Shown piece after piece: positions 3,001 to 9,000 of a stretch of DNA of 64,000 nucleotides (position 1 is the first letter of the stretch; each line of letters starts with the position of its first letter). The stretch lies in the NCBI RefSeq assembly GCF_988243305.1, contig NZ_OZ547136.1, one strand, 5' to 3'. A program made the position numbers.

Positions 3001-6000
3001 CTATTTATACCTCGCCAACATATTCAGCGAGTAAGCCTTCCAGCGTTACCGGTGGTGTTGTTTATACGATGTATAGCTCACATCAGAAACCTACACCATC
3101 AGATATTGGAGCGCTGCCAACGACTGGAGGGACTATTTCAGGTCCGTTGTCTGTTACTGATGGGATCACCGGGGCACTGAAGGGGAACGCCGATACCGCG
3201 ACGAAACTTGCGGCAGTCCCAAAAATTAACGGTGTTAAGTTTGATGGCTCGGCGGATATTAACCTCACGCCGGAAAATATTGGTGCATTTGCCCGACGTT
3301 CGACGGGGGCTTATGCGGATTCGGATGGAGCCGTTCCCTGGAATGCCGAATCAGGCGCTTACAATGTCACCCGCTCTGGCGACAGCTATATTCTGGTTAA
3401 CTTCTATACCGGAGTCGGAAGTTGCCGGACCCTGCAGATGAAGGCGCATTACAGAAATCGTGGTCTGTTCTACCGTTCTTCAAGAGACGGTTATGGTTTT
3501 GAGGAAGACTGGGCAGAAGTTTATACCTCGAAAAATCTTCCACCAGAAAGCTACCCAGTCGGCGCACCAATCCCGTGGCCATCAGATACCGTTCCGTCTG
3601 GTTATGCCCTGATGCAGGGGCAGACTTTTGACAAATCTGCTTACCCGAAACTTGCAGCTGCTTATCCGTCAGGCGTGATCCCTGATATGCGTGGCTGGAC
3701 GATTAAGGGCAAACCTGCCAGTGGTCGAGCCGTATTATCTCAGGAACAGGACGGCATTAAATCGCACACCCACAGCGCCAGTGCATCCAGTACGGATTTG
3801 GGGACGAAAACCACGTCGTCGTTTGATTATGGTACTAAGTCTTCAAATGCCACTGGTGACCATAACCACAGCCGAGGCACTATGGAAATTACCGGTACTC
3901 TCGGTTACTTCAGAAGTGATAGCGGTAATTTCTATACAGCAAGTGGAGCATTTACACTGGGTGGCTCTGCGCCAGCCCATGGATTTACGGGCTCTCAATT
4001 TACTTATGGTGTTCCTGTAAACTTTAACGCTTCCAGAACCTGGTCTGGTGCCACAAGCACTACAGGTAACCATGCGCACTCTGTTCCAATTGGTGCTCAT
4101 GCGCACTCCGTTGCGATTGGTTCACATGGACACACCATCACCGTTAACGCTGCTGGTAACGCGGAAAACACCGTCAAAAACATCGCATTTAACTATATTG
4201 TGAGGCTTGCATAATGGCATTCAGAATGAGTGAACAAGCACGGACCATAAAAATTTATAATCTGCTGGCCGGAACTAATGAATTTATTGGTGAAGGTGAC
4301 GCATATATTCCGCCTCATACAGGTCTGCCAGCAAACAGTACCGATATTGCACCACCAGATATTCCTGCTGGCTTTGTGGCTGTTTTCAACAGTGATGAGT
4401 CATCGTGGCATCTCTTTGAAGACCATCGGGGTAAAACGGTTTATGACGTAGCGTCAGGGGACGAGTTATTTATTTCTGAACTCGGTCCGTTACCGGAAAA
4501 TGTTACCTGGTTATCGCCGGAAGGGGAGTTTCAGAAGTGGAACGGCACAGCCTGGGTGAAGGATACGGAAGCAGAAAAACTGTTCCGGATCCGGGAGGCG
4601 GAAGAAACAAAAAACAACCTGATGCAGGTAGCCAGTGAGCATATTGCGCCGCTTCAGGATGCTGCAGATCTGGAAATTGCAACGGAGGAAGAAACCTCAT
4701 TGCTGGAAGCCTGGAAAAAGTATCGGGTATTGCTGAACCGTGTTGATACATCAACAGCACCTGATATTGAGTGGCCTGCAAATCCTGTCAGGGAGTAATC
4801 ATTGGTATTATGCCGCAGCACGTCTTAAGCAAGAACGTGCTGCGGTTGGATGCTATTTTTTCCCTGAAGCGGAAAACATTACTACAGTACCTTGAACCTT
4901 GGTTTTAACATTCTCGAAATGCTCTGAGAGTATATGTGTTAAGCCTTCTTCGGAATCTTTTGTGTTTGAAAAGATGCCTTTCTGATTGTAAATGCGCATC
5001 AGTTTTTGACCGAAGCTATTGTGCACAACTCCATCGCCAAGAATTGTGGCTCCGTATAGAGTTCCATCGTCAGTTAAGGCCTGCGCCGCATTGCGTATTA
5101 CACAGCTTTTTGTAGATATATTTCCAGGCAGGCAGTGAAGAAGGTAAAACATGGAAATGGAATCAAATTGACCATGTAACGCCGCGGGATAAGGTTCAAA
5201 AACATCATGGCTAATTTTATGTTTAATTTTTGATTCCCCAGCCCTTGTAGATGCCGCGTTCAGGCTAGCTTCGTTCAAATCCATTAAAGATATCAGACTA
5301 CTCTCAGGTACGTGAGTAAGGTAAAACCCAGTTCCAACACCAATATCCAGATGGTTGTTACCTACATGTTCCAGAAAGTGTGGAAGAAGGTGTTCCTTTG
5401 TAGGACATCCCCATGCAAGCCGATTTGATACTCCCAAAACCCACCAGTCATAAAGCTTTAGGGTAAGTGGTGTGTAAATTTTAGCCCCATCATCTGTGTT
5501 TTTTTTCATTGATTTCACCATGTTATAGTTTTATTTGTGAATTAAATCAATTATGGCGATGAATTACAAGGGGTTAAATGCTGCCGCAGCATAGCGATAT
5601 TGAAATAGCCTGGTATGCTTCGATACAGCAGGAGCCGAATGGCTGGAAGACCGTCACCACACAGTTCTACATCCAGGAATTCAGTGAGTATATTGCGCCA
5701 CTGCAGGATGCTGTAGATCTGGAAATCGCAACGGAGGAAGAAAGATCGTTGCTGGAGGCATGGAATAAATATCGGGTATTGTTGAATCGTGTTGATACAT
5801 CAACTGCACCTGATATTGAGTGGCCTGCAAATCCTGTCAGGGAGTAATCATTGGGATTATGCCGCAGACACGTCGTATGCAGGAACGTGCTGCGGTTAGT
5901 TTGTGAGCTTTCGATAGTGGTTGTTATTTTTGCCCTTATTTGTTCCGGAGGCCATGGTTCAATGGTCCGTCTGCCCCCTGTGGTGATGTCAGCAAAATCA

Positions 6001-9000
6001 GCCACTGCGCGAACCACAATAGCCCGGGAAGATGCTGAAGATCACCAGGTAAAGCTGTCAGCGCAGAAACTGGAAGAACTGCTCGCATCAATGGTTAAGG
6101 ATGAGGTTGATCGCAATGATGGGATTTATTGACGTCAGCGAGAGCAGAAGGAAGAACTGAATAACCTGAATGATTTACGCTCAATCAGAGCGATGATGAT
6201 TGGCAGTAATTAGCGGTCAATTTCGGTTTTTTTGGCTGTGCGCTCCCCGCCCAGCATTGCGCGTCAATTAGCCCCAAAAAAACGAAAAAGTTACAATCAA
6301 GTAAAAAATTCCTTCTGCAAAACTAAAAAAGATTTCAATAAAATCAGACAGTTAAAAACATAAAAAAAAGTACAAAAAAACATCTCAAAGTCTTGTTTTT
6401 TGCTTCAAATACAATTGGTTATTGTGTTTTTTGAAACCTACCAGTGTGGTACATGGATATCGATACCACCGCCAATTATAAGCTGGGCGGTGCACAGCAA
6501 CACGATAGCGTACGCCTCGATCCGTGGGTGTTTATGTTCTCAGCAGGATATCGTTTTTAATTCCGCACAAAAACGACCCCGTAATATACGGGGTCAATAA
6601 GGACATGGTATAAAGGGTATTATTTCTTCGCTTCTACGCCATCAGTTTCAGAGCGAATTAAAAATTTCTCAGTTGTTTGCGGAATATGCTGAATCAGCCA
6701 GTCGGCCATTTCTTTTTCCTCATTTAAAATCGCTTCGATGGTTGGAATTGAAGCTGTATCACCGGCATTTTTTGCTGCTGCTAATAGTGAGGTGTAACAG
6801 GCGATTTCAAATTGCTCGAAGACATATCCGCTAATAGAGCCTTTGACTATTTCATCAGAAGGGAATATACCACCGATTGACTGCCCAAGCGCAGCCATTT
6901 TACTCATGGAATCTTTAATGACTGAACGTGAAATGTCATTACGATCAAGAATAGTTTCCAGTTGAACAATCTGGTTTTTGGTTTCACTAAGATGTTGTTC
7001 AATACGAGCGCGTAGTTCAGGATAATTATCTATACGACTAGCCATGGATTCAAGCATAGATTCGGCTTGCTTTTCCATTGCGTGGGCGTCACGTAACCAG
7101 TCATGATAATGTTCAATACGATTCATGAAAATGTCCTCTTTATAAAATGACTAAAAGTTAAAGTTCATATTTCAGGCTTTATTTTCGGCTTTCTTATTTA
7201 CGTTATTAAGTGCCAGATCAGTCAGTTTGATGTCGGTGGCCTTTTCTTCTTCAAGAGTTTCTTTCAGAAGTTTCGCTGCTTTACGGTAACCTAATTGTTC
7301 AGCCAGCGTCGCTAAGATCCCGTAACTGGCGATCTCATAGTGCTCGACTTTCTGTGCAGCGGCAATCAGTGCGGCATCACGTACTTCGTTTTTCTCGGTA
7401 CTTTCGATGACCTCATTAGCTTCTTCAATGAGACCTTCCATTGCCACACATTTCATGCGCTTAATTTTCAGATTCGATTCAGATTCCACAACTTGATCAA
7501 TACGTTCAATCTGTCCATGTGTTTCCTCGAGGTGCGCATGAAAAGCCTGACTTAATTTTTCGTTTGATGTTGCTCTTGCGAGTTTTGCCAGTGCCCGGGT
7601 TAATTGTTTTTCTGCGCTGTAGGTATCAGAAAGCAGGTGAATAAAGACATCTTCAATGGTCTTCATATTCATATTTTTCTCCAGTGGAATCACTGCGAGC
7701 CATACGGCCCGCAGATGAAATTATCTTTATCAGCTGATATTAATAATTAACGGTGAATCAGGATTTGCCTGATTTATTACCACCGCTTTGTTGACCGCCT
7801 TTTTTACCCGCTTCAGATGCGCGTTGCGGATCATTTTTAAAATTACCGCCGCTATGCTGACCGCCTTTACGGCCTGCGTCGGATGCCTTCTCACGGTCTT
7901 CGGCGAAATTTCCTGAACCACCACGATGTTCGGCCATGTTATTTCTCCCGTTGCGTTGCATTGTTTGATTAATATGAGTGTTGTGTGTCGACACTCATTA
8001 AAATTAGTCGCTAATGAGAATTAGTCAAATTAAGCGTAACGAGAAGAAAGTGGGAAAATATATTATGAGGAACGTTCTGGATATATTAACAATTGCCTGA
8101 GGAATAAGTGACTTAGAGAAAATTATTTATTTTACTGGTGTTATGTTGCGGGATTAATTTGTTTGATTATATTACTGTTGGGCGGAAAAATAACGTAAGT
8201 TGACGTTCGACAGGGGTAAGCGAAACGGTAAAAAGATAAATATAAAATGAATTTAGGATTTTTCCGGCTTCGTTAAAGAAAGTTAAAATGCCGCCAGCGG
8301 AACTGGCGGCTGTGGGATTAACTGCGCGTCGCCGCTTTCATCGGTTGTACAAAAGCTTTCAGTGCCGCCAGCATTTTCTCTGGCTCATTAATATGTTGCT
8401 CGATGATTTTAACAATGGCCGAACCAGAAATCGCGCCCGCAGCTCCTGCATCAATCGCTGCTTTTACCTGATCCGGGGCGGAAATACCAAAGCCCTGCAA
8501 TGGAGGCGCAGCATTGTACTCTTTCAGCTTCGTGACCAGATGATTGAGGGGTAACGCGGCGCGGTTTTCTGCGCCGGTCACGCCCGCACGTGACAATAAA
8601 TAGGTGTATCCACGACCGTAGGAGGCTATCTGGCGCAGCAAATCATCGTCGGCATTCGGCGGGCAAATAAAGATAGGTGCGACATTATGACGCAACGCGG
8701 CCTGGCGGAAGGGAGCGGACTCTTCCACTGGCACATCGGCAACCAGCACCGAATCGACGCCGACTTTCTCGCACTGGGCATAAAACTCATCAATGCCTTT
8801 GTTAAACACCAGGTTGGCATACATCAAAAGGCCGATGGGAATGGTCGGGTGCTTCTGGCGAATCAGTGCCAGCATCTCAAAGCACTGTGCCGGGGTCACA
8901 CCTGCCGCAAAGGCACGCAGTGTGGCGTTTTGAATCGTCGGGCCATCCGCCAGTGGGTCGGAGAAGGGGATACCTAACTCCAGCGCGTTAGCACCGGCTT

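Follow-up and report, generated by a model that had tools for sequence, protein, structure and literature searches.

In the 64-kb window analysed here, that is, the whole stretch of DNA examined, a gap of approximately 580 bp separates the stop codon of a tail fibre assembly (tfa) remnant (5845-5847) from a 3′ fragment of ompW that begins at 6435. The preliminary description had placed about 580 bp between a truncated tfa gene and an ompW remnant, and this distance is borne out by the mapped boundaries at 5847 and 6435. From left to right, the gap and its right border could be divided into the 3′ flank of the tfa remnant (5848-5917), a collapsed Rac-type attR (5918-5948), the 3′ third of a DUF4376 gene (5944-6213), the own 3′ flank of this gene (6214-6296), an A-rich P arm (6297-6441), and a 28-bp core (6442-6469). 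The homologies, boundaries, repeats, and repeat conservation on which this division is based are direct observations.

The tfa remnant (5578-5847, plus strand) encodes the C-terminal part of a lambda-type tail fibre assembly protein, Caudo_TAP (Pfam PF02413, E = 6e-25), and was called by PGAP as a pseudogene without an N-terminus. Alignment of copy against copy showed it to be a duplicate of the 3′ end of the intact tfa gene at 4214-4798, and the duplication extends to ~5899; the tail fibre genes of this prophage are arranged in the order stf, tfa, SAM-methyltransferase, and tfa remnant. On the basis of the duplication, its fold, and matches to lambda and Rac, the following flank (5848-5917, plus strand) contains a degraded hairpin copy at 5861-5897. 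The hairpin after the remnant has a folding energy of −21.2 kcal/mol (z = −1.0), compared to −30.6 kcal/mol (z = −4.85) for the copy after the intact tfa gene (4811-4846). The element at 5848-5917 shows 89.8% identity to lambda 24161-24219, and the same hairpin element is found in the lambda b region and at the Rac right ends of K-12 Rac and Rac-SA53. In a promoter and terminator scan the counts were near the shuffled expectation, and the one relevant match was a weak hairpin at 5878-5894. An Rfam scan of 5400-6800 at E ≤ 1 gave no match inside the 580 bp, and its lone match, IS009 in the tfa remnant, was below its gathering score.

A collapsed Rac-type att end at 5848-5948 was absent from the preliminary description. 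At 5918-5948, 20-22 bp from the end of the Rac P arm adjoins the beginning of the 26-bp Rac core, of which 6-9 bp is present (TTGTTC[C]GG). This segment is identical to Rac-SA53 51939-51969 at 28 of 31 positions, whereas 500 shuffles reached at most 22/31, and the matching stretch in Rac-SA53 runs into an annotated 26-bp site, labelled ‘attB’, at 51961-51986. The end of K-12 Rac (1434939-1434964) is matched at 24 of 26 positions. Compared to the Rac-type attR in ttcA of K-12 Rac and Rac-SA53, the hairpin element, the end of the P arm, and the beginning of the core are retained in the same order, but the arm interior with its GGGGCAAAA repeats and the rest of the 26-bp core are deleted, and the ‘bacterial’ side is the phage DUF4376 gene, while it is ttcC in Rac. 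A three-way alignment showed that the arm interior was cleanly deleted, with TG microhomology at the deletion. Judged from these alignments, 5848-5948 is a collapsed right end of a Rac-type (ttcA) prophage, which halts within the Rac att core and is fused to the DUF4376 fragment, and the Rac-type segment is a relic rather than a site. It records past recombination between prophages of differing integration specificity.

The position of the breakpoint provokes thought on how this junction was formed. One tentative explanation, which has a reasonable but lesser chance of being correct, is that the junction at 5945-5948 is a fossil attR; a phage whose integrase was of the Rac type (ttcA-specific) may have entered a secondary site in the DUF4376 gene of a resident ompW prophage, and later recombination and deletion may have fused both. 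The other explanation, for which we see about even chances, is that co-resident prophages recombined, either illegitimately or by homology, without a Rac-type integrase acting at a secondary site, in which case the breakpoint within the core would be coincidental. Other rearrangements nearby that are not site-specific, such as the deletion of the Rac P arm interior at TG microhomology, the duplications of the tfa 3′ end, and the modular breakpoints at 6195 and 6210, are consistent with such recombination, as is the weak resemblance between the remaining Rac core and the DUF4376 sequence that follows the junction (13/23, in an alignment read by eye). However, the homology to two independent Rac ends breaks off within 6-9 bp of the start of the 26-bp core, the place to which an integrase-mediated exchange would assign it, and the integration of prophages into prophages has been documented for ompW prophages (PMC8112680). 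The 21-bp attB-in-PP_1 of PPompW, GTCATGCAGTTAAAGTGGCGG (PMC8112680), has no match in the 64-kb window with up to 3 mismatches allowed. If the junction is a fossil attR, the published prophage-in-prophage mechanism would gain a new pair of integrase and target and would reach non-STEC (B2/ExPEC) lineages, and hundreds of E. coli genomes would now contain a hybrid of a Rac-type phage and an ompW prophage.

To the right of the junction, PGAP and BLASTP identify the 3′ part of a DUF4376-type tail fibre assembly pseudogene (5944-6213, plus strand). It has lost ~105 N-terminal codons and is interrupted by an in-frame TGA at 6130-6132, beyond which the frame resumes in phase up to a TAG at 6211-6213. 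The PGAP label ‘DUF4376 domain-containing protein; internal stop; missing N-terminus’ is shared by three lineages, represented by ATCC 11775, O111, and ST131. BLASTP aligns 90 aa of the fragment with residues 103-192 of the 192-aa stf2 of SerU-LTIIb at 62% identity (E = 1e-31), and the relatives of the fragment are phage proteins of 188-192 aa. The last 83-90 codons are 62% identical, without gaps, to the DUF4376 (PF14301) proteins Rac-SA53 ‘tail4’ (ALP46893.1) and SerU-LTIIb ‘stf2’ (ALP46936.1), and 73-76% identical to their genes at the DNA level. The in-frame TGA aligns with Q or R of the intact homologues, and STEC307 has an intact 192-aa DUF4376 gene at the corresponding place. In contrast to such genes, a complete ORF of ~190 aa is absent here; only the C-terminal ~83-90 codons survive, interrupted by the TGA, with no adjoining tail fibre gene, and the fragment alone gives no match to DUF4376 (PF14301) in a Pfam search at E ≤ 1, compared to 61.9 bits for the full-length tail4 of Rac-SA53. 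A sub-threshold match of the fragment to DUF5646 was taken as chance.

The preliminary description had pointed out one conceivable small gene in the region, and its coordinates and start could be confirmed: the ORF (5962-6132, plus strand) begins with ATG at 5962, reads MVRLPPVVM..., and comprises 56 codons up to the TGA at 6130-6132. Its ribosome-binding site had been described as weak, but GGAGG at 5948-5952, 9 nt before the ATG, is not weak; it sits on the recombination junction. We consider it very unlikely that a bona fide small protein, such as a C-terminal Tfa fragment kept for some function, is expressed from this ORF or from its 83-aa read-through form. Such a role would be in line with the GGAGG, with the presence of the fragment and junction at ≥95% identity in 956 genomes, and with some database copies in which TGG (Trp) replaces TGA to give 83 aa, together with a recombinant variant whose frame runs uninterrupted to the natural stop (81-97 aa); given the GGAGG and these open frames, a fragment may be translated. 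On the other hand, the Shine-Dalgarno sequence arose from the recombination junction, and the prevalence of the ORF can be attributed to its linkage to the att arm and to the spread of the prophage. The ORF corresponds to an interior section of a ~190-aa protein whose N-terminal half is absent here, it has by itself no DUF4376 match in Pfam, and the nonsense codon in this lineage drops 26 conserved C-terminal residues. Moreover, a protein search with the ORF gave 26 matches, all of them E. coli or Shigella fragments of 35-97 aa, 25 at 87-100% identity and one, a 49-aa fragment, at 71%; stand-alone homologues beyond near-identical E. coli and Shigella copies of the same fragment, to which the relatives of similar length belong, were not found in this search. 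The copies of the ORF are ~98-100% identical, with no informative differences among them. As read from the sequence, the 56-codon ORF does not constitute a gene of its own; its start is a Met codon within a decayed parent gene that has lost its N-terminus, and its end is the nonsense codon in the frame of that gene. The dissection of the 580 bp thus guards against the annotation of a spurious small gene.

SerU-LTIIb remains homologous beyond the stop codon of the pseudogene, up to 6296, and 6214-6296 could be assigned as the native 3′ flank of the DUF4376 gene lineage. Its GC-rich centre is bracketed by runs of T7 and A7. In lambda, the sib element lies just beyond the P arm, which raises the question of whether 6214-6312 or the A-rich tract is a regulatory RNA element, such as a sib/tI-like retroregulator of int on the minus strand of the circular phage, a small RNA, or a promoter. 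The equivalent position, the retention of 6214-6296 together with SerU-LTIIb beyond the stop codon, and the T7...A7 inverted repeat around the GC-rich centre speak for such an element, but we consider it quite improbable. Folds of the A-rich arm and of 6200-6300 on both strands were no better than those of shuffled sequences (z = −0.25, +0.31, +0.83, and +0.23), on which ground a structured RNA or sib-like element was rejected. In addition, no hairpin with a T-run in the right orientation is present, Rfam at E ≤ 1 gives nothing in 6214-6296, promoter-like matches do not exceed the shuffled expectation, and the 6214-6296 segment is missing in ST131 and other variants of the arm.

The strong A-richness noted earlier is real and indeed extreme, but it starts at ~6275 and not at 6230. 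A makes up 58.5% of 6275-6392, compared to 25.3% of the whole window and 11.5% of 6214-6274, and no other 118-nt stretch of the 64 kb, on either strand, is as rich in A or T. Diverged ompW prophages share homology that starts at 6294-6314 and continues into the core, by which 6297-6441 could be delimited as the A-rich attR P arm of the ompW-type attachment site. A putative arm-type site for the integrase (Int), TTCTGCAAAAC, is located at 6313-6323 on the plus strand and matches the CTCTGCAAAAC repeats beside int at attL. In five diverged prophages, the CTCTGCAAAAC motif forms 3-4 direct repeats at attL, beside int, and it occurs once in the P arm, so that both arms contain arm-type sequence motifs distinct from the core. 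The homology between the roughly ‘82%-diverged’ arms begins exactly at the arm site, and CTGCAAAAC is invariant in nine P-arm variants though the surrounding sequence differs. A second arm-type site was sought in 5851-6480 with up to 2 mismatches, and none was found; GTACAAAAAAAC (6370-6381) and the minus-strand GTTTTTTGC were rejected as second sites on account of poor similarity or lack of conservation across the variants.

Further into the arm, a predicted site for IHF at 6342-6354 (plus strand, AATCAGACAGTTA) matches the consensus WATCARNNNNTTR and is preceded by an A/T tract. It is the sole consensus match in 6200-6480, compared to 15 matches on both strands of the 64 kb, and AAAATCA and GTTAAAAACA are invariant among six diverged variants. 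Conserved blocks of A6 or T-runs are present at 6374-6379, ~6396-6404, and 6419-6433, among which no repeated Xis motif is recognisable. A search of a phage collection with the A-rich arm gave one match, the unannotated prophage record CP025907.1.

The 28-bp core CAGTGTGGTACATGGATATCGATACCAC (6442-6469), which carries the inverted hexamers GTGGTA/TACCAC, is identical in the attR studied here, in attL of the ATCC 11775 prophage, and in attB within the unoccupied ompW of K-12. It opens a 121-bp imperfect att repeat (6442-6562), in which the native 3′ end of ompW here corresponds to a phage-borne surrogate at attL, with 95 of 121 positions identical between this attR and ATCC 11775 attL. The displaced native 3′ fragment of ompW (6435-6560, plus strand) contains 41 codons and a stop, was annotated by PGAP as a pseudogene, and is identical to the 3′ end of K-12 ompW, whereas at attL the surrogate end re-forms an intact ompW. 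Here attL lies beyond the window, and attL, int, and xis were read from the ATCC 11775 prophage, which is 99.7% identical. Beside attL, that prophage encodes an Int with the arm-binding domain of lambda Int (PF09003, 77.7 bits, E = 7e-22) and PF00589, and an Exc-family Xis (PF07825).

By analogy with lambda, the binding of proteins and the excision could proceed as follows. On induction, the lambda-type Int from the other prophage end would bind TTCTGCAAAAC and three CTCTGCAAAAC at attL by its N-terminal domain and the core by its catalytic domain, while the A-rich arm would be bent by IHF at 6342-6354, acting with the Exc-family Xis. An exchange of strands within the core would next release the phage and leave ompW in its native form. 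In this scheme, the P arm and the core are the only proposed active parts of the 580 bp. The lysozyme gene of the ATCC 11775 prophage is frameshifted; the prophage may therefore be defective and the arm possibly no longer in use.

The resemblance to lambda attP lies in the arrangement. Both P arms are A/T-rich and extend ~130-145 bp to the left of the core, with an arm-type Int site ~120-130 bp from the core, an IHF consensus in the interval between them, and three repeats of the arm-type site in the other arm, and the Int (PF09003) and Exc-family Xis are alike. The lambda P arm contains the arm-type sites P1 and P2, the IHF sites H1 and H2, and sites for Xis and Fis. In contrast, the present att shows no sequence similarity to that of lambda, its arm motif is CTCTGCAAAAC, one clear P-arm site is found where lambda has two, no Xis or Fis sites were recognised, and the core lies inside a gene for which the phage carries a replacement end.

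The λ-like prophages in E. coli ompW have been described as PPompW (Nakamura et al. 2021, PLoS Pathog, PMC8112680), with which the present prophage shares the integration site and the 121-bp imperfect att formed through a surrogate ompW 3′ end. The length of the repeat equals that of the published att, which was determined experimentally as 121 bp, and excision and circularisation were demonstrated by attP PCR and sequencing for PPompW of O145:H28 strains (PMC8112680). The ompW prophages met with here in O157:H7 EDL933, O111, and O145:H28-type strains belong to the PPompW set. The O111 copies and some O157 copies match 5841-6600 at ~98%, whereas the EDL933-type arm is ~82% identical and is without the DUF4376 relic. 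Unlike PPompW, the present prophage has neither a T3SS-effector locus nor the attB-in-PP_1, and its tail fibre region is different in gene content (stf, tfa, SAM-methyltransferase, and tfa remnant). Collectively, it is highly probable that the 580 bp is the ordinary right end of a lambda-like prophage of the PPompW type, inserted in the 3′ end of E. coli ompW and made up of gene relics and an attR arm; a region of this kind is already known. The proposal that the non-coding remainder is prophage-end DNA with att-proximal recombination sites is thereby supported, as 6297-6441 carries an Int arm-type motif and an IHF consensus and abuts the 28-bp core common to attL and attB. In place of an unexplained 580 bp, a pseudogene, an att arm on which the Int and IHF motifs are mapped, and a core can now be annotated, which is of little import in itself. 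The CTCTGCAAAAC motif and the 28-bp core provide a precise signature, of modest use in the search for ompW-type prophages and in engineered excision.

Comparison with other ompW-integrated prophages showed that the arm motif and the IHF consensus are kept across diverged variants. The A-rich arm is present in 1,191 of 5,426 complete E. coli genomes, and the arm or the attL junction in ~22-32% of them. The surrounding DNA is modular: ST131 strains have 5500-6210 in common at ~99% and then diverge, and O111 strains share 5841-6600 and differ upstream.

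The window holds the right end of a lambda-like prophage integrated at the 3′ end of ompW, and yciE, yciF, yciG, trpA, and trpB follow downstream of that end in the order found in E. coli. The 580-bp stretch (5851-6430) at this end is preceded by genes for a tail fibre (1086-4214) and, on the minus strand, a class I SAM-dependent methyltransferase (4853-5521), with an intact lambda-type tfa (4214-4798) between them; its left neighbour is a C-terminal remnant of tfa, which ends at 5847. The stretch shows 99.7-99.8% identity to many complete E. coli genomes, ATCC 11775, NU14, and UTI89 among them, and at least 80% of it is found in 562 genomes. 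It is an ordinary prophage end of a kind already known, in which the sole mildly novel element is a possible prophage-in-prophage fossil.

The possible small gene of 56 codons, MVRLPPVVM..., reads as described: it starts with the ATG at 5962 and stops with the TGA at 6130-6132. Its ribosome-binding site, previously called weak, is in fact a good GGAGG located 9 nt 5′ of the ATG, and this motif sits on a recombination junction. Past the TGA, the frame stays open, in phase, to 6213. The NCBI annotation (PGAP) of the equivalents in ATCC 11775, O111:H- 11128, and ST131 strains marks 5944-6213 as a pseudogene of the tail-fibre-assembly-like DUF4376 family, with an internal stop and a missing N-terminus. 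The fragment translation aligns gap-free with residues 103-192 of the 192-aa 'stf2' of SerU-LTIIb, a full-length relative (62% identity, E 1e-31), and its DNA is 73% identical to the 3′ part of 'tail4' of phage Rac-SA53, whose 188-aa product shares the conserved C-terminal motifs. The in-frame TGA aligns with Q or R in these proteins. Full-length tail4 scores 61.9 bits against Pfam DUF4376, for which the fragment alone gives no match. At the equivalent position relative to the ompW arm, STEC307 carries an intact 192-aa DUF4376 gene. A conservation search of the small ORF against 5.8 billion proteins returned E. coli and Shigella fragments only, 35-97 aa long and nearly all near-identical; some copies have TGG in place of TGA and reach 83 aa, and in a recombinant variant the C-terminus differs and is open, giving 81-97 aa. 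From the annotation, the stf2 and tail4 alignments, the STEC307 gene, and these fragment-only matches, the proposed start is a Met inside a longer protein; the small-gene reading thus gives way to a piece of a DUF4376 gene, and a functional small protein is highly improbable despite the well-placed GGAGG.

On sequence grounds, the A-rich DNA to the right is the P arm of attR. The A-richness noted in the preliminary description is real (58.5% A over 6275-6392, the richest in A or T of all 118-nt stretches on either strand of the 64 kb), but it begins near 6275 rather than at 6230, since 6214-6274 contains 11.5% A. The suggestion that the remainder carries att-proximal recombination DNA is borne out by the P arm, a core, an arm-type site, and an IHF consensus. 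The 28-bp core, CAGTGTGGTACATGGATATCGATACCAC (6442-6469), is common to attL, attR, and the unoccupied attB of K-12. In ATCC 11775, the opposite prophage end carries xis, int, and an intact ompW. To the right of the core, attR retains the native ompW end, whereas attL has a phage-borne surrogate, identical at 95 of 121 positions, which re-forms ompW. The att site of the published prophage type PPompW, determined experimentally, spans 121 bp (PMC8112680), the same length as here. Directly after the surrogate stop codon, attL contains three direct repeats of CTCTGCAAAAC, which are kept in 3-4 copies in five attL variants with greatly differing surrogate ompW ends. A single matching copy in the P arm, TTCTGCAAAAC (6313-6323), is a predicted Int-binding arm-type site, and CTGCAAAAC is invariant in all nine P-arm variants, including ~82%-identical arms such as that of EDL933. 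Homology between the diverged arms begins at this arm site (6294-6314), which places the functional left boundary ~130 bp from the core. Between arm site and core lies a single predicted IHF site, AATCAGACAGTTA (6342-6354), with invariant flanks. Int combines a catalytic domain with the arm-binding domain known from lambda Int (PF09003, E 7e-22), and Xis is of the Exc family. By analogy with lambda, we infer binding and excision at this site: Int would bridge arm-type and core sites on an arm bent by IHF and Xis, and the phage would be excised by strand exchange within the core. Of 5,426 complete genomes, 1,191 carry the ompW-type P arm and 1,728 the attL junction.

Lysogens have a chimeric OmpW (ATCC 11775 attL, locus L004, 30989-31627), in which NYKLGGAQQH, the last variable stretch, is replaced by KYKSGVTTVK. 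In other ompW prophages (L017-L020), the surrogate ends are very different and include an insertion of 5 residues; phages may thereby drive a change in a surface loop. On the L004 reverse strand (~30935-30960), the perfectly paired hairpin CTGGTCATCAAATGACCAG runs into T6; it lies directly after the arm repeats, overlaps the int stop codon, and resembles a terminator provided by the phage for the re-formed ompW. Just beyond attL, between ompW and yciC (L004, 31866-31955), is a pseudogene fragment of the YkgJ family, and AF10 has a full ykgJ-like gene within its ompW prophage end (L014, 1208-1540); both recall the ykgJ-derived attB-in-PP_2 (PMC8112680).

The segment between pseudogene and arm, 6214-6296, is the native 3′ flank of this DUF4376 lineage, because similarity to SerU-LTIIb runs beyond the stop codon to 6296. 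A sib-like retroregulator at this position is unlikely, since folds of the segment on both strands are no better than those of shuffles, a scan for terminators gave no fitting site, and Rfam gives no match. An inverted repeat, TTTCGGTTTTTTTGG ... CCAAAAAAACGAAA (T7...A7), surrounds a GC-rich 40 bp at 6221-6288.

To the left of the pseudogene lies a collapsed Rac-type att end. Positions 5848-5919 match a hairpin element with further copies behind tfa (4811-4846), in the b region of lambda (24161-24219), and close to the right ends of the ttcA-integrated prophages K-12 Rac and Rac-SA53. Positions 5918-5948 match Rac across its arm-core boundary: the final 20-22 bp of the P arm are followed by 6-9 bp from the start of the 26-bp core, with 28 of 31 positions identical (best of 500 shuffles, 22). 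A clean deletion has removed the interior of the Rac arm together with its GGGGCAAAA repeats, and homology ends within the core, where the middle of the DUF4376 gene follows. This junction occurs in 956 genomes. In the simplest scenario, a Rac-type integrase at one time inserted its own phage into the DUF4376 gene of a resident ompW prophage, and integration of one prophage into another is documented for other pairs (PMC8112680). Deletion and fusion would then have followed, and the reciprocal junction should comprise the DUF4376 5′ half, AGGTTGTATTGTTCTTTCTT, and a Rac-type P′ arm with int. Illegitimate recombination could have produced the same junction and is about equally possible. ST131 strains share 5500-6210 with the window at ~99%, followed by rha and ash genes and a variant arm; O111 and some O157 strains share 5841-6600 with it, but have IS and effector genes upstream. 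From these patterns, the relics and the att arm move together as one module. Two ST131 loci (L008 and L009, 3409-4620) run from the relics through rha and ash and a variant ompW fragment directly to trpA; since yciE, yciF, and yciG are missing, this suggests a composite or rearranged ompW locus.

On both sides of the upstream methyltransferase gene, the tfa 3′ end and its hairpin occur as direct repeats (4640-4850 and 5690-5899), with a mean column identity of 86% over the whole alignment and a much higher one inside the repeat proper; the gene looks like a moron inserted via recombination at tfa 3′ ends. The hairpin after intact tfa (4811-4846, plus strand) is strong (-30.6 kcal/mol, z -4.85); the same element lies between ea47 and ea31 in lambda (NC_001416) and at Rac right ends, where it might terminate a late operon or act as a hotspot of recombination. 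A match to the Rfam candidate sRNA family IS009 (5601-5804, plus strand) scores 112.5 bits, just under the gathering score of 117, and probably merely reflects tfa sequence, as it falls inside the C-terminal remnant.
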